A DNA stretch of 64,000 nt from Octopus vulgaris (Eukaryota), in NCBI GenBank assembly GCA_951406725.2, contig OX597821.1, positions 31,000,001-31,064,000 of the forward strand, written 5' to 3'. The notes beneath the pieces are model-generated. The model was given only the letters and a program-made list of their open reading frames with translations. It was not told where the DNA came from and made no database searches. Shown one piece after another: positions 1,535-60,883 of the stretch. Within the stretch, counting starts at the first letter, position 1. Every line of letters begins with the position of its first letter. A program made the translations under genes and the position numbers.

Positions 1535-2700
1535 TTTCTTTCATTGGCCTCAGTTGTGACTTTTATACTTTTGTCGGTGTTCTGGCATCTTACAAGATGT
1601 TTTCTGAAGGAAGTAGCTCTCGTGTTCAGATGTTCTTTGATGCGGACGTGTAACGGTCTTGTTGTGCTACCCACATATAACTTGTTGCATTTGTTACATT
1701 GTATTCTATACACAACATTTACCCGTTGGCATACATCTGTGTCACGGATGGAACAGCTTGTTACTGTGCATTGATTGTCATCCATTGTTCGTTCCTTAGT
1801 GAGATGTCCTCTCAGAGAGGGGCCGGAGTGGGCTAATTGTATGTCTAGCCCTTCTCTTCTTATGGCTCTCCAGATGGATGTAGTTATTCTCTCGCGAAAA
1901 TGGGGTATTTTAAAGAAGCATGTGTTCCTGGGTTTTCTATGTGTTCGGCGTGTTGGTCGTCTTTACATGAATCTAGGGTACCCGTTGGTTTTTAATATAC
2001 GTAGGAAGCGTGTAGTGTGGGTTACTTGTACTCCGTTCTGCTTCACTTACAATGGATGCGTGCAAGTACATTTCTGGCGTATCCTATTTTGGCACCGAGT
2101 GGAAGTGCTGAATTGTACTGGACAAACATATCTCTACCGGCCGCTTTCCTGTAGAACTCGGTGTGGATCTCCCCTTCTTTCGTTATATTCAGTTTGAAGT
2201 CAAGTAGTGATAGTGATCCAGTGATGTCGGGATGTTCTATAGTGAACTTTACTTTCGTGTCTATGTTATTGAATCTCGTGAATATTCTGTCAGCCTCTTC
2301 ACGGGAGGATGTGGGTATGAGGATGTCATCTACGTATCTAGTGAAGAAGGTGCATGAGCGGCAGATGTTGAGTGCACGACGTTCCAGATGGTCCATATAA
2401 GTGATGGCTAGTAGACCTGAGAGACAGGATCCCGTGGGGAGACCCGTTGTCTACTTGTATATGTGGTCCTAGAAATAGAAGTAGGTGATGTCCACGATGA
2501 TGGACAAAAGTTGATGTATATCAGCTGCGGTAAGTTCGAAGCATTGGATGTTGGACGTTATTATGCAGTCGGTCAATAGGTTGACCGCCGAGTGTGCTGG
2601 CACCGTTGTGTACATTGAGACAACGTCAGCACTAAAGGCATATCTGTTTTGCCTGAGATGGCAAATTCTTTCTGGGTTTAATTCTCGTAAAACCATCGCC
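1535..2700 (-). mobile_element. Penelope-like retroelement remnant (RT + GIY-YIG endonuclease), frameshifted
   Basis: ORF 2469-2696 has SADVVSMYT (RT motif A), ORF 2043-2396 has TRYVDDI plus the thumb region, ORF 1483-1785 has VVYRIQCNKCNKLYVGSTTRPLHVRIKEH (GIY-YIG). Confidence 0.92.
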
Positions 2701-17730: not shown

Positions 17731-18367
17731 GGATCTTTTCGCTTTGACAGGCAGATTTTTAAAATAATTTCTTTGTAACTAAACACTTTTAAACTTCGTA
17801 TACTGGTAGAATGTATTGCATAAAACATTTTTTTCTCTTGGCTTTCTTGAGAAAATTCTGTAGTTTGTAAGCGATTTGTTGTTTAATTTCTTGCATTTCA
17901 GCAATTTCAACAAATCAATGACTCTATTGAGGTGAATACACTTTCTCCGGTTCTTTGTCAACAACATTTTTTGACGGTGTCATATCAATCTGTCACTGTT
18001 ATTAAACCTGCATACGTTGTGAACTTAGAATATGTGTTTATTAATAAAAGTTTAATAATGATAATCTTTTATTCATACGAACGTAACTGATATGAAATAT
18101 GTCGTAAATAACAGTAACAAACTGATATGACAGCGCATTGACAAACAACCGCAGAAATTGTATTCACCTAAAGAGACGTCATTGATTGGTTGAAATGAAC
18201 GAAATGCAAAAAATTTAACAAGAAAAAGCTTACAAACTACAGAATTTTCTCAAGAAAGCCAAGAGAAAAAGATGTTTTATGTAACACACTACCAGTATAC
18301 GAAGTTTAAAAGTGTTTAGTTACAAATAAATTATTTTAAAAATCTGCCGGTCAAAGCGAAAGGGTCC
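17731..18367. mobile_element. Foldback MITE with long TIRs, 8-bp TSD (Merlin-like)
   Basis: ggatcttttcgctttgac...gtcaaagcgaaagggtcc; inverted arms extend >200 bp; TSD aaggcagc / aaggctgc. Confidence 0.85.
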
Positions 18368-23529: not shown

Positions 23530-23990
23530 TATTATAATAAGAGTTAGGCAAAAGAATTTGCTTCACCACACACCGAACTTTAGAAATAGCAGTAAAAAAA
23601 AAACTAGCTAAAAATCTAACTAGCAAAAAAACTAGCTACTGTAAGAAACAACTCCCAGACAATATATGCTCAAAAACGTATCACGTAGGCAGAGAAAGAA
23701 AACAATGAAGTTCACCTGGCATTAGATTAACTGTGTACGCGTTTCGAAATTAGTTAGATATGAAAAATGCAAGAATCGCATTTTCATTCTCACCACTTTT
23801 CCCATCAGCACAGTTAATCTAATGCCGGGTGAATTACGTCGTTTTCCTTCTCTGCCTACGCGATACGTTTTTCAGCATATATTTTCTGGGAGTTCTTTCT
23901 TACAGTAGAAAAAATAGTTTTCTTTTGGCTGCTATTTCTAAAGATCGGTTTGTGGGAAAGCAATTTCTTTTGCTTAACCCTTATTATAAT
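23530..23990. repeat. Foldback (inverted-repeat) element, ~180-200 bp arms, with a hammerhead motif at the centre
   Basis: Arms e.g. ggcattagattaactgtg / cacagttaatctaatgcc and tagaaatagcag / ctgctatttcta. Confidence 0.85.
23730..23814 (-). ncRNA. Type I hammerhead-like motif with long stem II insertion (A9>G)
   Basis: Reverse strand: actgtg CTGATGG gaaa...tttc GAAA cgcg TA cacagt. Confidence 0.65.
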
Positions 23991-24070
23991 AGGGCAGCGG
24001 ACTCGCGGTCGTAGGGTCGCGGTTTCGATTCCCAGACCGGGCGTTGTGAGTGTTTATTGAGCGAAAACAA
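23990..24070 (+). mobile_element. tRNA-like SINE head fragment
   Basis: agggcagcggactcgcggtcgtagggtcgcggtttcgattcccagaccgggcg (B box-like). Confidence 0.6.
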
Positions 24071-27229: not shown

Positions 27230-29700
27230 CTGATTAATATAATGACAATGATGAATCCTTGGCGAAAAATAGATAAAACTTTAACCCACCAAAAGACGAA
27301 GTACATATGTAGATCACGTCATTGATAGCCTCTCCCGATTTTGACTGAGGCTTAACGTGAACCTCAGACCGACCATTTCAACGAGAAAGGTCTGCACTTA
27401 TATGTTTTAAAAGTGAAAACAGAATTTTCATGAAACAAGCGGATAACGGGGGTGCCAATATAATAATGGATACGGAATATTACCGGGATCTAGCTGAAGA
27501 TAATCTTAAGGATACAAGGTTCTACCATGAAATCCCTTCAAATATTGATTTCCGCTTCATGAAAAGTTTCAGTTATTTGGTGTCAAAACATTATAACTCC
27601 CTCACTTGTAATGAAAGGGACTATATTACTAATTTTGAGTCGAAATCCAGTAACTTCTATGGCTTACCTAAAATACATAATTCAAAAGAAATACAAGACG
27701 CTACAAAGGCACACGGTAGTGAATACATAAAGCTACTACACCTAAAATACCTCAAATTTAGACCCATTATAGCTGGTCCAGCCTGTCCTACATATCACAC
27801 TGAGCAATCACACTGATTGTATTCTCAACTTATTATATGGTCACATACCCAGTTTCATTCCGGATGACATCTATTTCCTGTTATATCTGTCCAAAACAAC
27901 AGAATCCAATTCGCTGCTAGTTTTGACGTAACAAATGTATATACGAACAATCCATATGACTTGGAAATTACTGTCATAAAATATAGGGTCAATAAACAGA
28001 GAAACTACACACAGTAGATTTATTGTAACCTTCATGCTAGACGCAGTCAACCTCATCCTCGAAAACATCACATTCCCTGTCAATAGGGGAAAAAAACTGC
28101 CTTCAAATTCGAGGCACAGCTAGGAGGATGCGATTTGCTCCAGTTTTCGTGAACTCAGTATTGGAATACTTGGAACAAAACCTACATTTAAAAATTGAAG
28201 CAAAGTACGGCTTGATATTTAGAAGACATACAGAGGACACATGGAAAAGATACCTCGATGGTTGTTTCCTAATTTGGACCAACACCCGAGAAATTATGGA
28301 ATAATTCAGCACTCTCCTCAACAATCTACACCCTACTACCAAAATCATGAGGGAAATGAGCAACACACAATTACCATTTCTTGACAAAATTGCAATTAAA
28401 ATCAACACCACAATCACAACTGATATCTATTATAAAAGCACAGATACACATCAGTAACAATATTTCAAATCATGCCACCCAGCACATACAAAATGTTGTA
28501 CTGTCTAGCCAGGAAAATCAGTACTATAGTAGTTGATCCAAATACCTGGAACATACAACTTGTAGAACTCAAAGGATTTCTACTCAAGCAAAATTACCCT
28601 CTTCTACTAGCGTGCAACGAGCAAAGTAGATACCAATAAAACAACTTAGGGCAACACGTGAAGGCCGAACCCTTCACCACAATATCATTTCTAGTAACAC
28701 ACAATCCACATCGCCAAAACATTTTTAACAACATCAAAACAAATTTGCCAATGAAACATTCCTCTTAACCAAAATGCTATCACTTAAACTTTACAAAATA
28801 TTAACAAAAGCAAAATTCAACGTGAACAAACAGGATAAAACATTGAGAAAATCTAAGTGTAATGATAACAGAACCTGTCAATACATGCATGCTGGTAGAT
28901 CTATTAGAATAAAGAATGGACAGATATGAGCTGCAAAAGCAGACATTTTATCTGCTACATTAAGTGCCCGAATTGCAAGGAACTATATATTGGCGGGACA
29001 GTGAATGCATCACGGGACAGTGAATGCATCACGAGTTCACAGACAACACATACGGAACACTAATGTTCCCAAAATTCCATCAAGCGATCATATAGAAACG
29101 CGCGGTCAGAAGATGTTTCTAATTTTTCCTTTTTACAAACTACATGTCACAAGTGAGGTTGGAGGAAAGATAAAGAAAAACAACAAAAATGGTTTAATAA
29201 AATGTTCAAACCTCTTCTGAACGGAAATAACAACCAATTATTGATGTAGATTAAAAAGTACCTTTAACATATGAACATAAATAAACAAATTACAGAAGAC
29301 TCCAACCATTTCAAATAAAGACGATCGAAGCCAACTAGGTTTGCTCACTCATAAAACTATTATACCTAAAACGAAAAGCTAATTGGTTAAAATAAAGGTG
29401 GGATGTAATCCAGTAAAATCGGTAAGCCTGACAAACCGTGACGTTTAAGCTCAATGCGGATTGGGCAAAAAACGTATTCCAAAAATTACTACATTTGTGA
29501 AGAACTCAAACTGTCAATTAAATACATTTTGAAATCTGACGATTACTACGAACGTATAAAAGCGCTAACTGAGCTTTATGAACATTAAGAAATATATTTT
29601 TTAATGTTTAACACTTCAACATAGAAAAATCTTTTATATAAAAACTGAGAACCAAATCATGTTTTAACTTTATTTAACTTATATATCATTCTATACAGGT
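27230..29700 (+). mobile_element. Penelope-like element, near full-length but degenerate (RT, GIY-YIG, 3' pLTR)
   Basis: KQADNGGANIIMD, FYGLPKIH, FRPIIAGP, WKRYLDGCFLIW, CYIKCPNCKELYIG. Confidence 0.92.
29530..29572 (+). ncRNA. Degenerate hammerhead motif in the Penelope 3' region
   Basis: CTGACGA ttac..gtat AAAA gcgc TA (G12>A; palindrome AGCGCT); stem I poor. Confidence 0.5.
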
Positions 29701-36183: not shown

Positions 36184-36484
36184 ATCAACAATAAAGGAAC
36201 GGCCATAATAGGCCATTCACCCACTAGAAATAACAGCCAAAGCTTCAACCGCAAATAAAAGTTAATTCAGTAAACCAAGAGAAAATTTAAAAACATTTAC
36301 CCTTTAATTTCTTATACGATATACCGTTTCATCAGCAGATGAAACGGTATATCGTATAAGAAATTACAGGGTAAATGTTTTTTAAATTTTCTCCTGGTTT
36401 ACTGAATTAACTTTTATTTGCGGTTGAAGCTTTGGCTGTTATTTCTAGTGGGTGAATGGCCTATTATGGCCGTTCCTTTATTGT

Positions 36485-36488
<4 letters not shown>
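36184..36488. repeat. Near-perfect palindrome with ~150 bp arms and 4-nt loop
   Basis: Centre tacgatataccgtttcatc-agca-gatgaaacggtatatcgta; arms match out to atcaacaataaagg / cctttattgttgat. Confidence 0.95.
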
Positions 36489-37794: not shown

Positions 37795-39000
37795 ACTCAA
37801 AGAAATTCCAACTTTGATTTTCACGTTTTATTTATAATCTTATAATAACATAGTATAGTATATGATAATATAATATAATGAAATGATAGAATATTAAATG
37901 TCCATTCTGATTGAACTAGTACTTTCATGAATTAAAACTATGCAATCTTCAGGTTCATGTAGTTGAGATGACAGTTATGTTTTATAATTTACAGCTGTGA
38001 TGAGATTGCTAAAATACATTTCATGGCCTTAAATACATTTGTATTGGCTCCAGAGTGTTAATTTTTGCTAACTGTCTTCTGACCAATCCGTGTGTGATTT
38101 TATTAAATTACTTCAGTTGATTGGTGTTTGGTTTAAGCATCACGGTTTGTTGAACATGTCAAGAGATCCGTGTTCTGAACCTGGCCAAAGCAGTATTTGT
38201 CAGGCTATTGTTAGAAATGTTGTGAAACATTTCTCTGGAATTTTTACATTTCACCTATCATCATCATCATCATCATCATCATTATCATCTCCTTTATTAC
38301 TGTTGTCGTTGTTGTTAGTGGTGGTGGTATGAGTAGCTCTTGTAATAGAACTTTAAAACCCAATATATAATTGTTACTGACTTTTCTCTTGACTTAGCTA
38401 GTATTTTTCTGCTATTACCATAATGACCAGCTTTAGTATTGTTGTTGTTAGTGGTAGTGGTCGTAGCAGTAGATATATTACTTGTAAGTATTAGTATTAT
38501 TGTTTATTTAGCTTGGGTTTGAACTTATTAATAAAGTTCTTTTCTCTAATGTTTTCCATTCAATTTCACTTGAACTGTGTAATTTGTAGAATCGATATAT
38601 AGATATTTTCCGACCGCATGTTGCTAGATGGTTACTCAAAGGTATCTGACAGACATCTGGCTCTTTAATTTGCTGTTGGTGCACACCGTAATGTTCTGAG
38701 ATTGCATTTCCAGTCTGACCTACGTACAGTATTTCACAATTTGGGCATTTGATGCAGTAAATTAAATTTCGGCTTTTGCAGTTCATATTTGCATTTGTGA
38801 ATATTTTTCCGATTTTCGTTTTCATATATGGGCCGGTATGTATCAATTGGCATGTGCTACAGCGGCTATCATTGCATTTACATAGAATGAATGATTAATC
38901 TTTGTTGCCATGGTCAAACTTTGCCTTTGTTAATATTTTATTCAAGTTTTTAGTCTCTCTTCTACTAAGAACCATGGTTACATCTGTAATTATATATTTT
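37795..39000 (-). mobile_element. Penelope-like element 3' end: GIY-YIG domain plus pLTR
   Basis: ORF 38508-38846 NCKSRNLIYCIKCPNCEILYVGQTGN; downstream region is homologous to 48070-48490. Confidence 0.88.
37912..37957 (-). ncRNA. Type I minimal hammerhead ribozyme in Penelope pLTR
   Basis: tgaac CTGAAGA ttgca..ttcat GAAA gtac TA gttca; palindrome AGTACT; stem II has a mismatch. Confidence 0.75.
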
Positions 39001-44240: not shown

Positions 44241-44574
44241 TACCAGTATTCCTTTACAGTTTAGGATGTTGAAAATGTTCACCTGCATGTTTAACAAGAT
44301 TATGCTGACCAGGTTCATTTCCTGTAAATCAAAAGTCTATTCACAATATTGCTTACAGCCTATATATTTTGAATCAGTTATACTAAATTTCTGTATGTTC
44401 TGATTTCACAAATTATATTTATGCTATTTGTAAAGCCTTTATTTTTGTATTACAAATAACTGCGACATAAAACTCATTTCAGTCAACTTTACGCGAACGC
44501 AATATGCCGGGTGACAGTAGGTTATTCATACGTGAAAACGCACTAACATAGGTTACTCATTAGTGAAAAAATTA

Positions 44575-44627
<53 letters not shown>

Positions 44628-44735
44628 AAGTACTACGCATACAAGGAAAATGTCCTAGGTTCGATTTGTTCGACTGAAAGCTGTGCTACAAGATGGTCGC
44701 AGTCAAATGACTGAAACACATAACAGAATAATAGA

Positions 44736-44780
<45 letters not shown>

Positions 44781-44825
44781 TATACATTTATTCTATATAT
44801 GTATATATATATTAATATATATATG

Positions 44826-44857
<32 letters not shown>

Positions 44858-45036
44858 TATAAATATATATAAATTTTAAGAATTGGACAGCCATGAAACG
44901 ATCGTGGTGTTATACTAATTATCTTTTTTTAATAATTTTGATATATATTTAAAATAATATATATTAATTAATCTTATGTATTGGCTTAAGTTGTTCATTG
45001 TATGATTTGCCTAATAGTGGTTTTATATCTAATATA

Positions 45037-45083
<47 letters not shown>

Positions 45084-45309
45084 GAAATATTAAAATTACT
45101 AAGTCTCTCTAAAAGAGAACAGCGGCAGCGTTCCCGGAAAATAATAGTTATCGCCATACTAATATGGCATTCTTATAAAAATAAGAATAATGCTGAACGC
45201 TTATTAGCTCCATGAGGCCATCGCCTTAAGTTAGCTATTTGATACACAAACTGTATCCATATAACCTTCGAACAAGGGAGGTCAGTCGCTCCACACTACT
45301 TGACCGGCA

Positions 45310-45351
45310 GCTACAGACGCGTTTCGGGGTATTGCCCCTTTTCAATGCAGC
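45310..45351 (-). ncRNA. Type I minimal hammerhead ribozyme, U3-A8 variant (copy 1)
   Basis: gctgca TTGAAAA gggg caata cccc GAAA cgcg TC tgtagc. Confidence 0.82.
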
Positions 45352-45671
45352 GTAGCCAGCCAGTAGGTGTCGCCTCCGACAATCTCTGTTCGATGGTTTT
45401 ATTTACCTAGTTTCGGTGGAATACATCCACTTGTTTTCAATAATAGAAATATTAAAATTACTAAGTCTCTCTAAAAGTGAACAGCGGCAGCGTTCCCGGA
45501 AAATAATAGTTATCGCCATACTAATATGGCATTCTTATAAAAATAAGAATAATGCTGACCGCTTATTAGCTCCATGAGGCCATCGCCTTAAGTTAGCTAT
45601 TTGATACACAAACTGTATCCATATAACCTTCGAACAAGGGAGGTCAGTCACTCCACACTACTTGACCGGCA

Positions 45672-45713
45672 GCTACAGACGCGTTTCGGGGTATTGCCCC
45701 TTTTCAATGCAGC
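45672..45713 (-). ncRNA. Type I minimal hammerhead ribozyme, U3-A8 variant (copy 2)
   Basis: Identical to copy 1. Confidence 0.82.
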
Positions 45714-46033
45714 GTAGCCAGCCAGTAGGTGTCGCTTCCGACAATTTCTGTTCGATGGTTTTATATTACCTAGTTTCGGTGGAATACATCCACTTGTTTT
45801 CAATAATAGAAATATTAAAATTACTAAGTCTCTCTAAAAGAGAACAGCGGCAGCGTTCCCGGAAAATAATAGTTATCGCCATACTAATATGGCATTCTTA
45901 TAAAAATAAGAATAATGCTGAACGCTTATTAGCTCCATGAGGCCATCGCCTTAAGTTAGCTATTTGATACACAAACTGTATCCATATAACCTTCGAACAA
46001 GGAGGTCAGTCGCTCCACACTACTTGACCGGCA

Positions 46034-46075
46034 GCTACAGACGCGTTTCGGGGTATTGCCCCTTTTCAATGCAGC
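46034..46075 (-). ncRNA. Type I minimal hammerhead ribozyme, U3-A8 variant (copy 3)
   Basis: Identical to copy 1. Confidence 0.82.
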
Positions 46076-46395
46076 GTAGCCAGCCAGTAGGTGTCGCTTC
46101 CGACAATTTCTGTTCGATGGTTTTATTTACCTAGTTTCGGTGGAATACATCCACTTGTTTTCAATAATAGAAATATTAAAATTACTAAGTCTCTCTAAAA
46201 GAGAACAGCGGCAGCGTTCCCGGAAAATAATAGTTATCGCCATACTAATATGGCATTCTTATAAAAATAAGAATAATGCTGAACGCTTATTAGCTCCATG
46301 AGGCCATCGCCTTAAGTTAGCTATTTGATACACAAACTGTATCCATATAACCTTCGAACAAGGGAGGTCAGTCGCTCCACACTACTTGACCGGAA

Positions 46396-46437
46396 GCTAC
46401 AGACGCGTTTCGGGGTATTGCCCCTTTTCAATGCAGC
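46396..46437 (-). ncRNA. Type I minimal hammerhead ribozyme, U3-A8 variant (copy 4)
   Basis: Identical core to copy 1. Confidence 0.82.
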
Positions 46438-46757
46438 GTAGCCAGCCAGTAGGTGTCGCCTCCGACAATCTCTTTTCGATGGTTTTATTTACCTAGTTTC
46501 GGTGGAATACATCCACTTGTTTTTAATAATAGAAATATTAAAATTACTAAGTCTCTCTAAAAGAGAACAGCGGCAGCGTTCCCGGAAAATAATAGTTATC
46601 GCCATACTAATATGGCATTCTTATAAAAATAAGAATAATACTGACCGCTTATTAGCTCCATGAGGCCATCGCCTTAAGTTAACTATTTGATACACAAACT
46701 GTATCCATATAACCTTCGAACAAGGGAGGTCAGTCGCTCCACACTACTTGACCGGCA

Positions 46758-46799
46758 GCTACAGACGCGTTTCGGGGTATAGCCCCATTTCAATGCAGC
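46758..46799 (-). ncRNA. Hammerhead copy 5, A9>U and loop II change (probably impaired)
   Basis: gctgca TTGAAAT gggg ctata cccc GAAA cgcg TC tgtagc. Confidence 0.7.
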
Positions 46800-47134
46800 G
46801 TAGCCAGCCAGTAGGTGTCGCTTCCGACAATCTCTGTTCGATGGTTTTATTTACCTAGTTTCGGTGGAATACATCCACTTGTTTTCAATAATAGAAATAA
46901 TAAAATTACTAAGTCTCTCTAAAAGAGAACAGCGGCAGCGTTCCCGGAAAATAATAGTTATCGCCATACTAATATGACATTCTTATAAAAATAAGAATAA
47001 TGCTGACCGCAGGTTATATGGATACAGTTTGTGTATCAAATAGCTAACTTAAGGCGATGGCCTCATGGAGCTAATAAGCGGTCAGCATCATTCTTATTTT
47101 TATAAGAATGCCATATTAGTATGCCGATAACTAT

Positions 47135-47190
<56 letters not shown>

Positions 47191-47192
<2 letters not shown>

Positions 47193-47433
47193 TTATTCTA
47201 TTATTCAGTTATGTGTTTCAGTCATTTGACAAAGGCCATGTTGCAGCACAACCCTTAGTCGAAGAAATCGACCCCAGGACTTATTCTTTGTAAGTGTAGT
47301 ACTTTATAGGACTCTTTGCGAAGTTATGGGGACACAAACACAATAATATCGTTTGTGGAAGGGACGAACACCGACATTCAAACATATACATACATACATA
47401 CATACATACATACATACATACATACATACATAC

Positions 47434-47498
<65 letters not shown>

Positions 47499-47734
47499 GC
47501 ACGGAATTTTGCCAGTGAAGAGGTCGCGGTCTCAGAGCGACGAAGATGTTTTGAAATATTAAATTTAAATTTTGAAGTGAATTTAACGGCTTTTATGTGT
47601 TTCTTAAATGGTTTATAAACACCTTCCATGCTGCAATTGTTTTCGTTCCAGCACACGATCTCAGCTCAGATTTCCGTAATATATACATACATACACACAC
47701 ACACATGTGCATATATATATATGTGTGTATATAC

Positions 47735-48067: not shown

Positions 48068-48492
48068 AACAATTGCTGCTTCGGCCAGGGTCAAGATACA
48101 GGACACTTGACCTGTCCAACAAAGCGTGATGCCTAAACCAATCAGCTCAACCAACCAATCAGCTTAAGTAATTGAGTGATACTACACGCTGATTGGTCAG
48201 AATACAGTTTGCAAAACCTAGCACTCTGGAGCCTACCCAGCTGTATTTATAGCACAGAATCACTCATCTTGCTACAGTCAAAAATTGTGAAGCATGACTG
48301 TCAACACTACTACATGAACCCGAAGATTGCAGAATTCAATGCATGAAAGTACTAGTTCAATCAGAATGAATATTTAACATTCTACTATTTCATTTTATTT
48401 TATTCAATTATAATATATTATCTTATAATATATCATTATAAGATTGTAAATAAAACGTGAAAATCAGACAAGGTTGGAATTCTTTTTATTAA
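48068..48492 (+). mobile_element. Solo Penelope pLTR-like segment
   Basis: Homologous to the reverse complement of 37795-38200; flanked by (TA)n. Confidence 0.75.
48315..48359 (+). ncRNA. Type I minimal hammerhead motif (U4>C)
   Basis: tgaac CCGAAGA ttgca gaattcaa tgcat GAAA gtac TA gttca. Confidence 0.7.
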
Positions 48493-48521
48493 TATATTCT
48501 TCTATACACAATCACACACAC

Positions 48522-48580
<59 letters not shown>

Positions 48581-48796
48581 TATATACTCACACACATATA
48601 TATATATATTTATATATACATACACACACACATATATATAATACGTAAATAGATGAGTGTATTTTTCCCTTGTTAACAATTAACACGGAAAAAAATTAAA
48701 TAGTTACCAGGGCAGCAAAAATCTCACAAGTAAAGGTGTTGTAACTACTTGTTTATAAAGGTAGAAACTTCGTGTTTACGTTGAATATTTTGAATA

Positions 48797-48997
48797 ATAT
48801 GAATAAAAAATGGACTTAACGCAGGTGTAATGAAATATTTTTACTTTCGACACATGTTTCGAAAATTCTCCTGAGGAGAAGATTGCATTGTTTATACCAT
48901 TTATTCTTTTGAATAGTATCAGTGGAATTTTCGAAACATGTGTCGAAAGTACAAATATTTGATTACACCTGCGTTAACTCCATTTTTTTATTCATAT
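48797..48997. repeat. Imperfect palindrome with hammerhead-like relic (second copy ~55888-56088)
   Basis: actttcgacacatgtttcgaaaattc / gaattttcgaaacatgtgtcgaaagt arms; CTGAGGA at 48871. Confidence 0.75.
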
Positions 48998-49000
48998 ATA

Positions 49001-49046
<46 letters not shown>

Positions 49047-50289
49047 TCACACACACACATATGTATATACATATATATGTATATATATATATATATATAA
49101 TATATATATACTTAAATATATATTATGTATATATATATCTCTTATTATAAAAGGCAGATTTTATCTGCCTCCCTTTGACTCTTATAGAAATCCACAATAT
49201 AGGATTTCTTCAATTACAATTTACCTAGCATTTTTAAGAGTAGAATACATAGGGTCGTGCCAGGTCCAGTTTTTCAAATTTCAACCCTAATTAAGCAAAA
49301 TTTAAAGAAAACTCACCATTGTGGTGTGTAAGTCAAGTGCTTTTCTTAGTGTGGGCTACAGCACACACACACACGCACACACACACAAACGGAGCGAACT
49401 GCTTCACTGATGCTATCACCCTAATTTCTCCCACATTCTCTTTGCAAATGTACCTTAAAACACTACTCAAAAAAAAACACAGCAAACAGAAACAAATAAA
49501 TACATAACGATTTACTCCTCACACAATTTCTTCAATTAGAGTTTACCTATGATTTTTCAAAGTACGTCCATTCGGTCATGGCATACAAAATTTCTTTCAA
49601 TTTCACCCCCATTTCAGAAAAAATTCGAGAAAACTAAATATTTTACCATTTCACTCTTTCACTCTGCATTCCCACTTCCTGTTTACACACATAGACACGC
49701 AAATATATAAATAAAATTGTAAGCTAACGTGTGTGTGTGCGTGTGTGTGAGTGTGGTGTGTGTGTGCGTGTGCGTGTGTGTGAGGGTGCATGTGTGTGTG
49801 TGTGTGTGCGTGTGTGACATGCGAACTTCAAAAGAACTTCGCGCGCTATATATCTGGTTTACCATTCCTCACACACACGCATACACATACATATATGACA
49901 GTGACAAACACAAACGTTTCAAACAACTACATACAAACACTCAAACACACACACACGTGTGTGTTTGTTATTAGTAAAAAAGGTGCCAAACACAACTCAC
50001 TTCTCATTCGAACACATTTGCAAAAACACACCGACGGTCGGATTGCCATAACAATACAGAAAAGGTAAATTGGTTTTTAATTTACTTTCTGTCGTTAAAT
50101 TTTGGTAGTATTAATTGGCGAGCGTACTTCTGTTGTCAATTGTTGACAGAAAGAAATTGTAAGCTAATAAGGTGTGTGTGGGTAGGAAGTGAAGGATAAA
50201 AATATTGCAAGAAGTGGACAGATGTACATATATACATCCATACATACATGTGTGTGTGTCTATGTATGTGTATTAATGTGTGTGTGTTA

Positions 50290-50646
50290 TCTCTATATAA
50301 AGCTGAAGTTGTCTGTGTGCGCCACGTTTGGTAACCTTCAACTAACACTATCTCCTCCGAGACCCTGCGGCGCATGTTGACCAAAATTGAGAGTATGATA
50401 GAAGAAGGGTTGCTCCTCCTTCCGTAGAACATAAAATTCAAATCGGACCATGTTAACATGAAAAATTATTTACTTCAAAAAGCTGCTTTTTTCTATGAAA
50501 ATCCCTATTTTTTACGATTTTTTCCCTGCTGTGTCGCCACTTTTCGGTATATTTCGACCCGAAAAATGTTCACAAAATTTTGGCTTTTCAAAATTACAAT
50601 TCCAGCGGGTCGGAACAAACCCGAGCAACGCCGGGCAATACTGCTA

Positions 50647-50647
<1 letters not shown>
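50290..50647 (+). mobile_element. Non-autonomous Helitron-like element (second copy 57372-57730)
   Basis: 5' A|TC tctatataaa; 3' hairpin cccg-agcaacgc-cggg, then CTAG|T. Confidence 0.75.
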
Positions 50648-50690
<43 letters not shown>

Positions 50691-50794
50691 GAGGAAACAC
50701 CCTTCGATCATGAATGACCATGGGATTGCACCTACAAAACTACCCTCCGAGGCACAACCTAGGGGAAGTTTGTTTATGGATGGCCAGTAGTCAC

Positions 50795-50883
50795 CCTGCT
50801 CAAGAACACAACACTCAGACCGGTCCTGGCATCGAACTCGCAACCTCACGATGGTAAGCTCCACGCTCTAACCACTGAGCCAT
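50795..50883 (-). mobile_element. tRNA-derived SINE head
   Basis: Reverse strand tggctcagtggttagagcg (A box) ... gagttcgatgcc (B box) ... gtgttcttgagcagg; no intact cloverleaf. Confidence 0.7.
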
Positions 50884-51102
50884 ATATACAGAGAGAGATA
50901 GGGAGAGAATTGTGAAATGCGTGTAAGTATAATAGCAGGACTAGATGAAGTTATTTTATATTATCCAGTAACCTATTTTATGTTTTTATTTAGCTAAACC
51001 CATTTGTATTATTTCCATTGTCTGTTGAGATCCCCCCAGTTCTAGCACTCTATATTTAATGGTGTAAGTTTATACGTAGCCCAGTTCAGTTTTGTTCATA
51101 TA

Positions 51103-51347
51103 CAGTGTTGGCCAAAAAACAACTGACCGTAAATCAAAATCATTCATTTCCAAGATGAAAACAAAAACAAAAAAATAGTTATCTTTTGAGACCCATAATA
51201 AATAGACAAATGCTGAAAAAAACCAAAACGGTGATTTTAACTCATATCATTCAATTATTAAACTTTCATGATTAGAAATAATAAATAAAATTAAATAAGT
51301 ATTTATGGAATTTATATTTACCGTTGGGCGAATTTTGGCCAACGCTG
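51103..51347. mobile_element. Tc1/mariner-type MITE (second copy 58187-58432)
   Basis: TA|cagtgttggccaaaa ... ttttggccaacgctg|TA. Confidence 0.85.
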
Positions 51348-53534
51348 TATATCTAAGGTAAGTGAGTTGCAAGTCACGTGCACAATGATATACGATGTGT
51401 TCCTAAGGATGACAAAAGTTATTCCTTTCTCTATAAACGACGTTAGTCTACGACGTGAATATTTTTGACTGTTCTTTCTCCTATGCAGGCTAACTTAATA
51501 GACATCCCTCTATCTTTTCGTAAGAGTCCATACATCTTATGAATAATGTAAGCCTTTGTATTATTCATTGCATGGATAATGTTACATTATTTGGGAACGT
51601 TCCAAGATTTTTCTTTTGTTCTCTTGAGTTTTTGTTTATATGAAATATTTTACGCACACAAAAACATATATACATTCAAAATACATACCGACAACCGCAA
51701 AGCGATATTCCAGAAAATGTATAGTATCTCAAGAGTCTGTTGTACATTACATAATTATATTCGTAAATGTTGTAATAATTAGATTTATCTTCAGTAATAT
51801 CATGCAGGAATATACAATATAAAATATGGTTTTGGTTTTTAACTTAGCATATCGATGAGAAACAAATCTACAATATGGTACAATGTATAGTGGAATTTTC
51901 TGGTTGGTTTGTTTACTGTTAGTGTAATATGTTTCCCGTTTGGAAATGGATAAATATATTTAACTTTTGAAGTATGGATATATATATTGATACACCCGTC
52001 ACTTATAACTTACTTTTAAGTTTTATCATTATACATAATCCCTGACTCCAGGTACATAAACGCCATAGCGAGAAATATATTTTCTGAAACGGTAACGGAC
52101 ATTTTATGCGAGCATGTATGTTGAATATAAATAATTTCGTGTTCTTTTAACCGCAATAAAAATACAGATTCATAATTACAGAAACACATTTCATTAATAA
52201 ATTGAAGAACGTGAAGAAAGAGAAAATAATTACTACATTATTCTATGTATGTACGTTTAGCATTATTAATATTCATAATACAATTTGAAGTAATGTAATT
52301 TTGTCGTAGAGAAATACGACTTAAAATTTACGCTAAATAATTCTTCATACTAACTATATTGATCTTACATAGATTAAAACAAAGTCTTGTTGGATTCTTC
52401 ATAGAAATGGCATAAAAACATAACCAATGTCTCAAAGAAGTGAATGTCATGGAGTTTAGTAGCATCCCACAAACACTAAAGTTTTCTCCATAATCCAGGG
52501 TTTTTATAACTGCTAAACTTCACTTTAAAGAATTGAAATCACATAAAAATATTCTTTAACAAAGTTAACTAATTTTCAGAATTCCTGTATGAGCAGTTAT
52601 TTCAACCAATGGGAAAACGACAATCATATTTCTTCGGCAATATGACATTACGTCATATTGCCAGCTACCACACATTGGCGGTACTATTTGAAAATGACTA
52701 CACGCTACAAATGTAAAAAGAATTTTTAAATAGCGCAGTGCATTTCATTTGACATTTCATATATCATAATAACAATTAATATTTTTGAATTATGGGATAC
52801 GAATGTTTAGATAAATATAGTTTACAAACACAATTTTTCTTGCAGTATATAATTAGTATATTCTCTATATATTTGATTATGACACACTGCTGATTATAAC
52901 AGATTACACAATAAAAGGCATCCTTGACGCTTTTTGGGTCTCAGCAGAAATATTGAAGTATTGATTGATGTTTCAATTATATTTACGAACACATTATCAT
53001 ATACTGAATTAAATTAACTGAAAGTTCTATATATTTCAAAATAAAGTGCTTAAAGAAACTGATAGAGCAGATCAAAGTTTGGTGTGATGAATTAAATCAG
53101 AAAAAAAAATCAATTCCAATGAATTGCTTAAATCAGCGATCCCATGAAGCGAAAAAGGTTTGCTGCTAGGAATTACATTCGTAAATCGGTAAACCTTTTA
53201 TTTAGTCTTATAGGCAATAGTTATTACCTCTCCTAACATGAGTACCTTTTAGCTAACATCTGTTTTGAGAGAATCGCACACACTGTCAGTAATGGTAGAA
53301 TTTATATAAGTATCAATTTCGTTCTCAGGATATTCGTAGAATATTTAAAACTTATCTTCCTGTAAAATTATATAGAATCTTTCGTATTTGTTGGCTTTCA
53401 ATAGGGAACATAAATATGAATGATAAATTTATACTGGATTAAGACACTCAAAAATTACATGCAACATCAGGGAAATGTTTATATATATGTGTGTATGTAT
53501 GTGTGCACGTCTGTGTATGTGTTTATGTGTATAC

Positions 53535-53645
<111 letters not shown>

Positions 53646-54111
53646 TACATACATACATTCACACATATATATATATACATACATATATATGTGTCAGCGT
53701 TTTTTGTTTGTACGTGTATAGATCTCAATCTAATTGCTTTAATGAAAGCTCTAATTATTGGGCCATTTCTAACCAAATGTATCTATAGTTGTAATTTCGC
53801 AAATTATAAACATAATCTTCTAATTTGCTGTATTCTCTGAAAACATTGCTGCATGCATTCAGTTGTAATTATTCACTCGAAGCAGCACCAACTTGCTCTA
53901 ATTGTTACTTGAAGAAGCGGCAGCCAATTTATTATCGATAAACGTATCCAAAAGGAAAACAGGAAACTACATGTAACGAGGAGAAATCTAATAAAAAGGA
54001 TTTCTTGGACGAAAATGGATATAATATTAATTCCACGAAAGTACACGTGGTCACATAATAATGCAGATACATACAACTCTATGTATATTGTGCAAGCATA
54101 TGCACACATAC

Positions 54112-55313: not shown

Positions 55314-55413
55314 NNNNNNNNNNNNNNNNNNNNNNNNNNNNNNNNNNNNNNNNNNNNNNNNNNNNNNNNNNNNNNNNNNNNNNNNNNNNNNNNNNNNNNN
55401 NNNNNNNNNNNNN
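55314..55413. other. Assembly gap (100 N)
   Basis: Run of n. Confidence 1.
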
Positions 55414-55614
55414 GAAGATTGCAGAATTCAATGCATGAAAGTACTAGTTCAATCAGAATGAATATTTAACATTCTACTATTTCATTTTATTTTATTCAAT
55501 TATAATATATTATCTTATAATATATCATTATAAGATTGTAAATAAAACGTGAAAATCAGACAAGGTTGGAATTCTTTTTATTAATATATTCTTCTATACA
55601 CAATCCACACACAC

Positions 55615-55678
<64 letters not shown>

Positions 55679-56091
55679 TCACACACATATATATATATAT
55701 TTATATATACATACACACACACATATATATAATACGTAAATAGATGAGTGTATTTTTCCCTTGTTAACAATTAACACGGAAAAAAATTAAATAGTTACCA
55801 GGGCAGCAAAAATCTCACAAGTAAAGGTGTTGTAACTACTTGTTTATAAAGGTAGAAACTTCGTGTTTACGTTGAATATTTTGAATAATATGAATAAAAA
55901 ATGGACTTAACGCAGGTGTAATGAAATATTTTTACTTTCGACACATGTTTCGAAAATTCTCCTGAGGAGAAGATTGCATTGTTTATACCATTTATTCTTT
56001 TGAATAGTATCAGTGGAATTTTCGAAACATGTGTCGAAAGTACAAATATTTGATTACACCTGCGTTAACTCCATTTTTTTATTCATATATA

Positions 56092-56137
<46 letters not shown>

Positions 56138-57729
56138 TCACACACACACATATGTATATACATATATATGTATATATATATATATATATAATATATATAT
56201 ACTTAAATATATATTATGTATATATATATCTCTTATTATAAAAGGCAGATTTTATCTGCCTCCCTTTGACTCTTATAGAAATCCACAATATAGGATTTCT
56301 TCAATTACAATTTACCTAGCATTTTTAAGAGTAGAATACATAGGGTCGTGCCAGGTCCAGTTTTTCAAATTTCAACCCTAATTAAGCAAAATTTAAAGAA
56401 AACTCACATTGTGGTGTGTAAGTCAAGTGCTTTTCTTAGTGTGGGCTACAGCACACACACACACGCACACACACACAAACGGAGCGAACTGCTTCACTGA
56501 TGCTATCACCCTAATTTCTCCCACATTCTCTTTGCAAATGTACCTTAAAACACTACTCAAAAAAACACAGCAAACAGAAACAAATAAATACATAACGATT
56601 TACTCCTCACACAATTTCTTCAATTAGAGTTTACCTATGATTTTTCAAAGTACGTCCATTCGGTCATGGCATACAAAATTTCTTTCAATTTCACCCCCAT
56701 TTCAGAAAAAATTCGAGAAAACTAAATATTTTACCATTTCACTCTTTCACTCTGCATTCCCACTTCCTGTTTACACACATAGACACGCAAATATATAAAT
56801 AAAATTGTAAGCTAACGTGTGTGTGTGCGTGTGTGTGAGTGTGGTGTGTGTGTGCGTGTGTGTGTGTGAGGGTGCATGTGTGTGTGTGTGTGCGTGTGTG
56901 ACATGCGAACTTCAAAAGAACTTCGCGCGCTATATATCTGGTTTACCATTCCTCACACACACGCATACACATACATATATGACAGTGACAAACACAAACG
57001 TTTCAAACAACTACATACAAACACTCAAACACACACACACGTGTGTGTTTGTTATTAGTAAAAAAGGTGCCAAACACAACTCACTTCTCATTCGAACACA
57101 TTTGCAAAAACACACCGACGGTCGGATTGCCATAACAATACAGAAAAGGTAAATTGGTTTTTAATTTACTTTCTGTCGTTAAATTTTGGTAGTATTAATT
57201 GGCGAGCGTACTTCTGTTGTCAATTGTTGACAGAAAGAAATTGTAAGCTAATAAGGTGTGTGTGGGTAGGAAGTGAAGGATAAAAATATTGCAAGAAGTG
57301 GACAGATGTACATATATACATCCATACATACATGTGTGTGTCTATGTATGTGTATTAATGTGTGTGTGTTATCTCTATATAAAGCTGAAGTTGTCTGTGT
57401 GCGCCACGTTTGGTAACCTTCAACTAACACTATCTCCTCCGAGACCCTGCGGCGCATGTTGACCAAAATTGAGAGTATGATAGAAGAAGGGTTGCTCCTC
57501 CTTCCGTAGAACATAAAATTCAAATCGGACCATGTTAACATGAAAAATTATTTACTTCAAAAAGCTGCTTTTTTCTATGAAAATCCCTATTTTTTACGAT
57601 TTTTTCCCTGCTGTGTCGCCACTTTTCGGTATATTTCGACCCGAAAAATGTTCACAAAATTTTGGCTTTTCAAAATTACAATTCCAGCGTGGTCGGAACA
57701 AACCCGAGCAACGCCGGGCAATACTGCTA

Positions 57730-57772
<43 letters not shown>

Positions 57773-60612
57773 AGGAGGAAACACCCTTCGATCATGAATG
57801 ACCATGGGATTGCACCTACAAAACTACCCTCCGAGGCACAACCTAGGGGAAGTTTGTTTATGGATGGCCAGTAGTCACCCTGCTCAAGAACACAACACTC
57901 AGACCGGTCCTGGCATCGAACTCGCAACCTCACGATGGTAAGCTCCACGCTCTAACCACTGAGCCATATATACAGAGAGAGATAGGGAGAGAATTGTGAA
58001 ATGTGTGTAAGTATAATAGCAGGACTAGATGAAGTTATTTTATATTATCCAGTAACCTATTTTATGTTTTTATTTAGCTAAACCCATTTGTATTATTTCC
58101 ATTGTCTGTTGAGATCCCCCCAGTTCTAGCACTCTATATTTAATGGTGTAAGTTTATACGTAGCCCAGTTCAGTTTTGTTCATATACAGTGTTGGCCAAA
58201 AAACAACTGACCGTAAATCAAAATCATTCATTTCCAAGATGAAAACAAAAACAAAAAAATAGTTATCTTTTGAGACCCATAATAAATAGACAAATGCTGA
58301 AAAAAAACCAAAACGGTGATTTTAACTCATATCATTCAATTATTAAACTTTCATGATTAGAAATAATAAATAAAATTAAATAAGTATTTATGGAATTTAT
58401 ATTTACCGTTGGGCGAATTTTGGCCAACGCTGTATATCTAAGGTAAGTGAGTTGCAAGTCACGTGCACAATGATATACGATGTGTTCCTAAGGATGACAA
58501 AAGTTATTCCTTTCTCTATAAACGACGTTAGTCTACGACGTGAATATTTTTGACTGTTCTTTCTCCTATGCAGGCTAACTTAATAGACATCCCTCTATCT
58601 TTTCGTAAGAGTCCATACATCTTATGAATAATGTAAGCCTTTGTATTATTCATTGCATGGATAATGTTACATTATTTGGGAACGTTCCAAGATTTTTCTT
58701 TTGTTCTCTTGAGTTTTTGTTTATATGAAATATTTTACGCACACAAAAACATATATACATTCAAAATACATACCGACAACCGCAAAGCGATATTCCAGAA
58801 AATGTATAGTATCTCAAGAGTCTGTTGTACATTACATAATTATATTCGTAAATGTTGTAATAATTAGATTTATCTTCAGTAATATCATGCAGGAATATAC
58901 AATATAAAATATGGTTTTGGTTTTTAACTTAGCATATCGATGAGAAACAAATCTACAATATGGTACAATGTATAGTGGAATTTTCTGGTTGGTTTGTTTA
59001 CTGTTAGTGTAATATGTTTCCCGTTTGGAAATGGATAAATATATTTAACTTTTGAAGTATGGATATATATATTGATACACCCGTCACTTATAACTTACTT
59101 TTAAGTTTTATCATTATACATAATCCCTGACTCCAGGTACATAAACGCCATAGCGAGAAATATATTTTCTGAAACGGTAACGGACATTTTATGCGAGCAT
59201 GTATGTTGAATATAAATAATTTCGTGTTCTTTTAACCGCAATAAAAATACAGATTCATAATTACAGAAACACATTTCATTAATAAATTGAAGAACGTGAA
59301 GAAAGAGAAAATAATTACTACATTATTCTATGTATGTACGTTTAGCATTATTAATATTCATAATACAATTTGAAGTAATGTAATTTTGTCGTAGAGAAAT
59401 ACGACTTAAAATTTACGCTAAATAATTCTTCATACTAACTATATTGATCTTACATAGATTAAAACAAAGTCTTGTTGGATTCTTCATAGAAATGGCATAA
59501 AAACATAACCAATGTCTCAAAGAAGTGAATGTCATGGAGTTTAGTAGCATCCCACAAACACTAAAGTTTTCTCCATAATCCAGGGTTTTTATAACTGCTA
59601 AACTTCACTTTAAAGAATTGAAATCACATAAAAATATTCTTTAACAAAGTTAACTAATTTTCAGAATTCCTGTATGAGCAGTTATTTCAACCAATGGGAA
59701 AACGACAATCATATTTCTTCGGCAATATGACATTACGTCATATTGCCAGCTACCACACATTGGCGGTACTATTTGAAAATGACTACACGCTACAAATGTA
59801 AAAAGAATTTTTAAATAGCGCAGTGCATTTCATTTGACATTTCATATATCATAATAACAATTAATATTTTTGAATTATGGGATACGAATGTTTAGATAAA
59901 TATAGTTTACAAACACAATTTTTCTTGCAGTATATAATTAGTATATTCTCTATATATTTGATTATGACACACTGCTGATTATAACAGATTACACAATAAA
60001 AGGCATCCTTGACGCTTTTTGGGTCTCAGCAGAAATATTGAAGTATTGATTGATGTTTCAATTATATTTACGAACACATTATCATATACTGAATTAAATT
60101 AACTGAAAGTTCTATATATTTCAAAATAAAGTGCTTAAAGAAACTGATAGAGCAGATCAAAGTTTGGTGTGATGAATTAAATCAGAAAAAAAAATCAATT
60201 CCAATGAATTGCTTAAATCAGCGATCCCATGAAGCGAAAAAGGTTTGCTGCTAGGAATTACATTCGTAAATCGGTAAACCTTTTATTTAGTCTTATAGGC
60301 AATAGTTATTACCTCTCCTAACATGAGTACCTTTTAGCTAACATCTGTTTTGAGAGAATCGCACACACTGTCAGTAATGGTAGAATTTATATAAGTATCA
60401 ATTTCGTTCTCAGGATATTCGTAGAATATTTAAAACTTATCTTCCTGTAAAATTATATAGAATCTTTCGTATTTGTTGGCTTTCAATAGGGAACATAAAT
60501 ATGAATGATAAATTTATACTGGATTAAGACACTCAAAAATTACATGCAACATCAGGGAAATGTTTATATATATGTGTGTATGTATGTGTGCACGTCTGTG
60601 CGTGTTTATGTG

Positions 60613-60683
<71 letters not shown>

Positions 60684-60883
60684 GTGTGTACATATATGTG
60701 TAATATATAAACATATGTATACATACATATATGCATAATAATATATATGCATATGTATATATAAATATATATATATATGTATCAATTGATAAATACATAC
60801 ATATATACGTATATATATGTATACATATGTATATCAATACGTATATATACGTATATATATGTATACATATGTAATTATCAATC

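Follow-up and report, generated by a model that had tools for sequence, protein, structure and literature searches.

Metazoan non-long-terminal-repeat (non-LTR) retrozymes, known from coral, Mytilus (350-390 bp) and axolotl, are tandem non-coding units some hundreds of nucleotide pairs long with a G+C content below 50%, each carrying a type I hammerhead ribozyme with a short palindromic helix III (PMC7229834; here and below, statements on cited work refer to the available part of each text). They occur in thousands of copies, co-exist with Penelope-like elements (PLEs) and keep the ribozyme folded in the predicted circle, while their mobiliser and the role of the circle as template are presented there as a hypothesis. 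Vertebrate retrozymes are likewise non-autonomous tandem hammerhead elements tied to Neptune and Poseidon PLEs, and most families have arrays of at most seven units (Li, Clavereau, Pollet 2026; 10.64898/2026.07.22.740005). In the available text of that study, which samples no molluscs, PLE mobilisation is backed only by co-occurrence and terminal homology. An octopus element with all the retrozyme properties listed above lies in a 64,000-nucleotide stretch of Octopus vulgaris DNA (GCA_951406725.2, contig OX597821.1, positions 31,000,001 to 31,064,000, forward strand), referred to as the window, whose first letter is position 1. By DNA-level criteria its family is a metazoan non-LTR retrozyme, and the window copy is probably best explained as one insertion of a young non-autonomous family that borrows the reverse transcriptase (RT) and GIY-YIG endonuclease of a Neptune-type PLE.

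The tandem array occupies 45078-47010, with a period of 362, 5.3 copies and 98% matches in Tandem Repeats Finder (TRF), in agreement with the five full units and partial sixth reported in a preliminary description of this DNA. The unit has a G+C content of 151/362; neither of the two plus-strand frames that overlap the array has a Pfam match, and the minus strand is without any frame of at least 100 aa. Unit positions (q) run along the minus, or ribozyme, strand from q1 at plus 45439, so that the hammerhead motif corresponds to q89-130 and its predicted cut to q124/125. The five motifs were located where the preliminary description had placed them (45310-45351, 45672-45713, 46034-46075, 46396-46437 and 46758-46799), and the first cut after GUC maps, as given there, to plus 45316/45315; the others are predicted at 45678/45677, 46040/46039, 46402/46401 and 46764/46763. 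Two of its statements on the array required correction. The motif, said to be identical in every full unit, is exact in four of five, the fifth (46758) reading TTGAAAT (A9U) with loop CTATA. The array, taken to stop at 47010, continues as an inverted arm of the 362-nt unit at 47008-47138, with (TA)n on both sides; the head-to-head joint lies at about 47008-47011, and the inverted piece measures 131 bp. The insertion comprises the following features:

45024-45080, no strand: (TA)n microsatellite to the left of the insertion (TRF)
45078-47010, minus strand: long arm of 5.34 tandem 362-nt units, with its RNA 3' end at 45078 (long end, q362) and 5'-truncated at 47010 (q240)
45078-45140, minus strand: PLE-type tail of 63 nt, q300-362, separating the short 3' end from the long one (arm 3'-end counts)
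45264-45397, minus strand: long rod, q43-176, with the ribozyme at its tip (fold, truncation counts)
45296-45368, minus strand: hammerhead 1 including the extended helix I, motif proper at 45310-45351; core U3 U4 G5 A6 A7 A8 A9, helix II GGGG/CCCC, palindrome ACGCGU
45416-45475, minus strand: 60-nt block over the unit junction, q327-q24, candidate recognition site for the PLE protein (subfamily comparison)
45672-45713, minus strand: hammerhead 2, core intact
46034-46075, minus strand: hammerhead 3, core intact
46396-46437, minus strand: hammerhead 4, core intact
46758-46799, minus strand: hammerhead 5, A9U core and altered loop 2
47008-47138, plus strand: short inverted arm, q170-300, head-to-head with the long arm and stopping at the short 3' end; no ribozyme
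47138-47189, no strand: (TA)n microsatellite to the right of the insertion (TRF)

Judging from known core chemistry, hammerhead 5 is probably impaired by A9U. A retrozyme is recognised by a tandem unit between 150 and 450 bp long and by type I hammerheads in two or more successive units; here the unit is 362 bp, and four consecutive motifs of the five are intact.

The element belongs to a dispersed family. A search of the 2.8-Gb genome with the unit returned 155 matches among the 40 scored of 1,071 candidates, listed on 15 contigs, and full units among these were 93-100% identical, mostly 98-99%. The core pattern TTGANAA-N9-18-GAAACGCGT, in which helix III is ACGCGT, matched 1,812 times against 23 for the reversed control, far more than chance would give, and 97 of the first 100 listed matches were assigned to the family by eye. 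With ACATGT there were 2,828 matches (control, 203), of which the first 100 listed included 28 of retrozyme type, most of the others coming from a PLE, the 781-aa family described below. A junction motif matched 1,533 times (control, 0). Extrapolation from the pattern counts suggests about 2,500 ribozyme copies in the family. Copies of subfamily A differ from their majority by a mean of 1.1%; subfamily B differs from A at 43 positions and E from A at 60, with subfamilies up to ~17% apart. These results bear out the earlier view of a young mobile tandem element, in that the family is dispersed, young and non-coding. The C3-G8 form of the pattern had 80 matches (control, 12), none with the family helix II by eye, and nine fetched C3-G8-pattern loci contained no family copy; the lineage as sampled is therefore U3-A8.

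The scan for Rfam hammerheads proposed in the preliminary description misses the window's ribozyme copies: to E = 10, positions 44500-47600 gave no hammerhead, only (TA)n artefacts. Across the genome, RF00163 had six matches among 73 scored candidates (L111-L116), the best at 45.5 bits and none in the window. A CUGANGA pattern would likewise miss the ~2,500 extrapolated retrozyme hammerheads and the motifs of one PLE family, and censuses built on that pattern or on Rfam therefore undercount. For the giant squid genome, 235 Rfam hammerhead-1 loci have been reported (PMC6962438), so that hammerheads in general are already documented for cephalopods.

Direct evidence on mobilisation comes from the anatomy of the insertions. 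After removal of seven duplicates from 110 fetched loci, 11 had no copy and 92 yielded 166 arms; because loci entered the sample by having full units or the core pattern, arm lengths are biased upward. Arm 3' ends fall at two fixed sites 63 nt apart, 72 near q299 and 79 near q362 (15 elsewhere), and (TA)n adjoins 134 of the 151 defined ends. Head-to-head pairs are strictly asymmetric: 56 of 68 combine a long and a short end, 12 include an undefined end, and none is long+long or short+short. The same holds in the E/F subfamilies (42 loci), where 14 of 23 pairs are long+short and nine have an undefined end, with no same-kind pair, so that all 70 pairs with both ends defined have one end of each kind. 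Junction overlaps peak at 2-4 bases (30/68), and 5' truncations cluster at q162-176, the 3' foot of the long rod (38/166 arms). The 3' ends sit 175 and 238 nt downstream of the ribozyme cut; priming is therefore internal and not at the cleaved end.

These traits are those of PLE insertions, whose hallmarks are 5' truncation, an inverted 5'-truncated copy, a tail at one end and a bias to microsatellites (10.1101/2021.04.23.441226). In an Anolis PLE, RT starts at two internal sites, the tail being what separates them, and both strands are cut and extended by the protein (PMC11167929). The octopus family shows every one of them: 5' truncation, an inverted second arm, a one-sided tail and a microsatellite target. 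Target-site duplications of retrozymes, where present, are longer than 4 bp; in the octopus family the insertion ends lie in (TA)n, which would mask one. The PLE mobilisation suggested in the preliminary description thus gains direct anatomical support from two-arm, two-end insertions in (TA)n, and PLE-type mobilisation of the family is very highly probable. The strict long+short pairing constrains the PLE mechanism and suggests a single asymmetric two-strand event. Canonical endonuclease PLEs (Neptune/Nematis and Anolis Poseidon; PMC11167929, 10.1101/2021.04.23.441226) share the truncation, partial tandems, inverted arm, one-sided tail, AT-rich or microsatellite targets and a hammerhead upstream of the tail; the octopus retrozyme differs from them in having no open reading frame, a tail of 63 rather than 30-40 nt, and a canonical instead of a minimal hammerhead. 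Paired head-to-head arms inserted into (TA)n with a tail of 63 nt are not described for retrozymes in the available text of PMC7229834. The link to PLEs also differs in kind from that in vertebrate retrozymes, where it consists of co-occurrence and pseudo-LTR homology (10.64898/2026.07.22.740005), whereas in the octopus family it is insertion anatomy, with no PLE-end homology detected.

The most conserved stretch of the unit, q327-q24, spans the long end and contains none of the 60 A-versus-E differences; only one of the 43 A-versus-B differences falls within q332-q45. This junction block, delimited after the data had been viewed, is a candidate recognition site for the PLE protein.

In the computed fold of the unit (-120.7 kcal/mol, z = -6.84; 0/100 shuffles fold as well), the hammerhead forms the tip of the long rod and consists of a 6-bp helix I, an internal loop, a distal extension, a 4-bp helix II and a palindromic helix III. 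These are the dimensions of canonical metazoan type I hammerheads (6 bp in helix I, 4 bp in helix II, and 1-2 bp with a palindromic loop in helix III; PMC4209133). The marks of minimal PLE hammerheads, namely a helix II of 7-8 bp, an unpaired base after A9 and a helix I of 4-5 bp, are lacking, and helix II is 4 bp and starts right after A9. The earlier label of a minimal type I hammerhead is accordingly replaced by canonical type I, with helix I extended past the internal loop. Tertiary contacts between loop 1 and loop 2 are a mark of canonical type I hammerheads. Here the internal loop (UAC opposite U) is mostly retained among copies, and loop 2 varies between CAAUA, CAAAUA and CAACAA; these loops may resemble those of Schistosoma hammerheads.

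A Watson-Crick 3-8 pair, GAAA and UH are all present in the core, the pair being U3-A8 and the cleavage triplet GUC. U3-A8 is a natural covariation of the 3-8 tertiary pair and is stated to be active in vitro (PMC3088659); the hammerheads of Perreault 2011 show the same 3-8 covariation as the octopus retrozyme. About 1,300 Schistosoma PLE-related motifs also have U3-A8 (PMC4209133), although those of the Cercyon PLE are minimal and mostly single, whereas the octopus motifs have a canonical fold in tandem units. Unlike the retrozymes of PMC7229834, the octopus lineage is U3-A8 throughout and is known here from DNA alone. The candidate retrozyme of the preliminary description therefore stands at the DNA level (tandem, non-coding, dispersed), but its core is not a novelty.

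Conservation of the fold was assessed on 23 ribozyme domains from six subfamilies. Of 434 cells, 95.9% pair, and two-sided changes occur at 5 of 19 pairs; the covariation score was reached by 0/500 shuffles, and slid controls pair at 29-43%. Pair 10.1-11.1 is AU in 12 domains, GC in seven and GU in four; the palindrome centre is AU in 12 and GC in 11 (ACAUGU and ACGCGU forms); and one helix I pair is GC in 12, GU in six and AU in five. Compensatory changes are thus found in all three helices, and the fold therefore matters to transmission. Several considerations temper this result. The 23 rows were hand-chosen and had been found with a pattern that fixes the core and loosely constrains helices II and III; they are also kin, and related sequences can outscore a shuffle control. 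Subfamily E, which was met by chance and then fetched by DNA similarity, is a cleaner comparison. Its 60 differences from A include none within 12 core positions, while the free position N7 differs, and 10.1/11.1 and the palindrome centre change as pairs; the full 12-position core is kept in 35 of 37 E copies. Taken by itself, the unchanged A/E core does not reach significance (~2 changes expected and none seen; P ~0.13), and the evidential weight lies with the paired changes. The type I hammerhead is thus conserved across genomic copies as the preliminary description required, core and helices being kept with compensatory changes. Its further claim, that the palindromic helix III favours action as a dimer, agrees with the computed energies: for two neighbouring copies, the energy of the double-hammerhead fold (-174.0 kcal/mol) equals that of the unconstrained minimum, while a pair of monomer folds gives -166.6 kcal/mol.

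Private changes of individual copies hit the core (7/2,163 sites) as often as the remainder (180/72,162), from which it follows that inserted copies decay neutrally and that selection acts on transmitting lineages. C17 deviates in just 1 of 164 aligned units. The case for activity consists of an energy model and conservation, on which the hammerhead is likely to cleave in vivo; two published results point the other way: among predicted Xenopus retrozyme dimers, only 1 of 9 cleaved in vitro (10.64898/2026.07.22.740005), and ribozyme mutants of an Anolis PLE insert normally in vitro, unprocessed RNA being the main substrate (PMC11167929). A second hammerhead-like string at the unit junction (q362-q36) was rejected, as its GAAA becomes GTAA in subfamily E and its helix I is poor.

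The chief rival explanation differs in the form of the template. Of the 166 arms, 97 exceed one unit and 32 exceed two, the longest reaching 9.8 units, and 130 cross the cut site; a cut linear monomer is therefore not the template unless scarless jumps occur. At family-polymorphic sites, copies in one arm differ by 1.2%, those in the two arms of a locus by 2.2% and those at separate loci by 18.8%, and a haplotype shared within an insertion is what repeated copying of one monomer circle predicts. On balance, a monomer circle appears to be the usual template. The competing view likewise assumes PLE mobilisation, with an uncut linear multimeric RNA as template and arrays re-expanded or homogenised after insertion by unequal exchange or conversion; the hammerhead would be slow or would only trim 5' ends, and circles would be by-products. 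This view we regard as distinctly less probable. The normal insertion of ribozyme-dead Anolis RNA and the frequent crossing of the cut site both suit it. Homogeneous source arrays would also yield homogeneous insertions, and homogeneity is incomplete: a polymorphic allele is present in all copies in 74 of 97 cases and in only some in 23, and rare variants are fixed in all copies seven times (5/58 loci) and present in only some nine times. Some arrays share a variant between non-adjacent units (L002, L098) or mix haplotypes, as in the window, where the units read Z X Y Y X Y from the cut site, an order compatible with a mixed multimer or with later exchange. Truncations at the cut site are modestly enriched (q124-134, 12/166, versus 2 in q99-123), although 25 of 362 intervals reach 12 truncations as the cut-site interval does; their use as proof of cleavage was abandoned, since stops on the 3' strands of helices account for them equally well. 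What speaks against an uncut multimer is that linear copying only shortens, so that array length is not sustainable by it alone, yet multi-unit arms of up to 9.8 units occur in every sampled subfamily. The common haplotype of the two inverted arms and the compensatory changes in all three helices, by which the fold matters to transmission, also count against it.

Two other readings depart further from a retrozyme and are both very improbable. The unit could be the pseudo-LTR of an autonomous PLE not yet found, the loci being its 5'-truncated copies. The PLE footprint at the loci is in keeping with this, as are the occurrence of hammerheads in PLE pseudo-LTRs (PMC4209133) and the homology of Xenopus retrozymes to PLE termini (10.64898/2026.07.22.740005). 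However, copies of the unit follow one another head-to-tail with nothing coding between them, its hammerhead is canonical and not of the PLE minimal type, and no frame of at least 130 aa continues an arm in L031-L049; the unit and these continuations are also without an RT and GIY-YIG frame, so the element is not itself an autonomous PLE. All ten extra junction-motif loci were plain arms, although only a small share of loci was read. An ordinary satellite or minisatellite with a chance or long-dead hammerhead-like motif would fit the lack of any Rfam hit to E = 10 and a core that, once inserted, mutates no less often than other positions. Retrocopies normally decay neutrally, however, and a satellite accounts neither for the very many scattered loci at which short arrays have fixed 3' ends nor for the helix covariation and for subfamily changes that hit N7 and spare the other core positions.

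For the preferred reading, that of a retrozyme inserted by a borrowed PLE machinery, two candidate enzyme sources are present in the genome. One, reached from a PLE fragment in the window, is a family that has a tandem period of 4,271 bp and, in many copies, an open frame of 775 aa. The other was found by a GIY-YIG search and has a 781-aa frame, with 98.5-99.1% identity to L163 at 8 of 10 loci. Both are Neptune-type and young, have intact RT and GIY-YIG frames, and insert with ends at two sites, each adjoining (TA)n; of the four complete two-armed loci in the 775-aa family, three are long+short and the fourth is not assignable. The 781-aa family carries the motif TTGATAA-GGTTC..GAACC-GAAACATGT ~70 nt before its short end, which combines a U3-A8 core and the ACAUGU palindrome, as in retrozyme subfamilies E/F, with a minimal-type fold. 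Although only 16 letters are alike, this suggests common descent of the two hammerheads. Local scores of the unit against the ends of the two families (23 and 24) do not exceed the shuffle means (27 and 26), so no sequence link names the partner. The retrozyme shares no sequence with the 3' end of either young family compared, apart from the core and ACAUGU common to one. It thereby differs from Chlamys non-autonomous PLEs such as MRC1, which usually resemble the 3' end of a partner and are mostly hammerhead-less (10.1101/2021.04.23.441226). The 781-aa family is a tentative choice of partner, with the chances somewhat against it; the 775-aa family and some other family are each a weaker possibility.

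An insertion would then proceed as follows. Multi-unit copies would be transcribed on the ribozyme strand; neighbouring hammerheads would pair via the ACGCGU palindrome, as in the computed fold, cut after GUC and release ~362-nt monomers, which a host ligase would circularise, by analogy with other retrozymes. A PLE protein, probably as a dimer, would bind the conserved junction block, nick both (TA)n strands and prime internally at q299 on one strand and q362 on the other (enzymology modelled on PMC11167929). Each RT would circle the template until drop-off, in many cases at the rod's foot, after which the cDNA ends of both arms would be joined head-to-head through microhomology of a few bases. 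Inserted copies would then decay neutrally, with selection on the ribozyme confined to the transmitting lineage. The fuller proposal, a U3-A8 hammerhead lineage common to an autonomous Neptune-type PLE and the retrozyme together with coupled two-site priming on one circular RNA followed by rolling-circle reverse transcription, falls a little short of an even chance. If true, the family would be a genome-scale record of a PLE integrating retrozyme circles, with the RNA and intact candidate enzymes both at hand for reconstitution.

U3-A8 cores have been described before, and so have mollusc retrozymes of about this length. No report of a cephalopod retrozyme, a U3-A8 retrozyme or a PLE two-end footprint on a retrozyme was found in the literature searched, although supplements or repeat databases may list one. 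What the octopus family adds is that the footprint of PLE integration is seen on a retrozyme, at scale, in a genome that also has two young PLE families whose frames are intact. The question of mobilisation thereby becomes testable in vitro, since the start sites (q299, q362) are defined and a block of 60 nt is a candidate for binding.

Contigs from four sequencing runs with four organism labels contain the unit, which is evidence of presence only. Joints at which such contigs go back 362 were discarded as evidence of circles, because tandem DNA gives an identical joint. In runs X1, X10 and X16, an otherwise A-like unit mostly has a different tail segment from window position 45475 onward, which points to another dominant subfamily in other lineages or individuals. 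One X10 contig (record 14, depth 7.7) has 23 differences over 45206-45393, and the 11 listed, among them core A6, A9 and A15.1, are all T>C on the plus strand and hence A>G in the ribozyme sense. This looks like adenosine-to-inosine hyper-editing, perhaps of a two-inverted-arm duplex in a host transcript, in a single contig whose RNA status is guessed. A corresponding retro-editing signature was sought in genomic copies and dismissed, with 18 A>G against 20 T>C. Read-through transcription by RNA polymerase III was also set aside, as several T4-T5 runs in the unit, seen by eye, argue against it.

Further observations concern the PLEs. Decayed fragments lie in the window at 1483-2450 (minus), 27361-27816 (plus) and 38508-38894 (minus), and represent the RT and GIY-YIG of an old family as well as RT and endonuclease pieces resembling the 775-aa family. 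The fragment at 1483-2450 is an unlikely partner because its family is old, the other 149 listed hits being 45-84% identical and many having stops. In L149, an old retrozyme copy lies next to a Neptune copy; this was put down to a common choice of target and not counted as an association, given that the 29 other E loci consist of free-standing arms. In both Neptune-type families (L117:524-4164, L163:787-4184), an upstream frame of 454-479 aa, without a Pfam match in L117, overlaps the RT frame by ~80-90 nt; the overlap contains CCATTTTTT and is possibly a programmed frameshift. About 500-545 nt past the end of its RT frame, the 775-aa family (L117) has a motif that, by eye, resembles a minimal hammerhead, with core CCGAAGA (U4C), helix II TGCA/TGCA and the palindrome AGTACT. 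The U3-A8 minimal hammerhead of the 781-aa family (L138-L169, L219-L224) accounts for more than half of the first 100 listed ACATGT matches, and in the youngest subfamily its helix I appears weak and U-rich.

Elsewhere in the window, an inverted pair (85%) of a short interspersed repeat at 44628-44791 and 47141-47304 brackets the insertion without being part of it; we take this repeat to be an octopus short interspersed element (SINE). A 5.4-kb stretch is duplicated at 99% (48322-53694 and 55414-60780) on either side of an N gap at ~55314-55413, accompanied by a further 1.8-kb repeat, and is possibly an assembly artefact. Self-inverted elements resembling miniature inverted-repeat transposable elements occur at 17731-18367 (~640 bp) and 23530-23991 (~460 bp), and a near-perfect 306-bp palindrome lies at 36184-36488.

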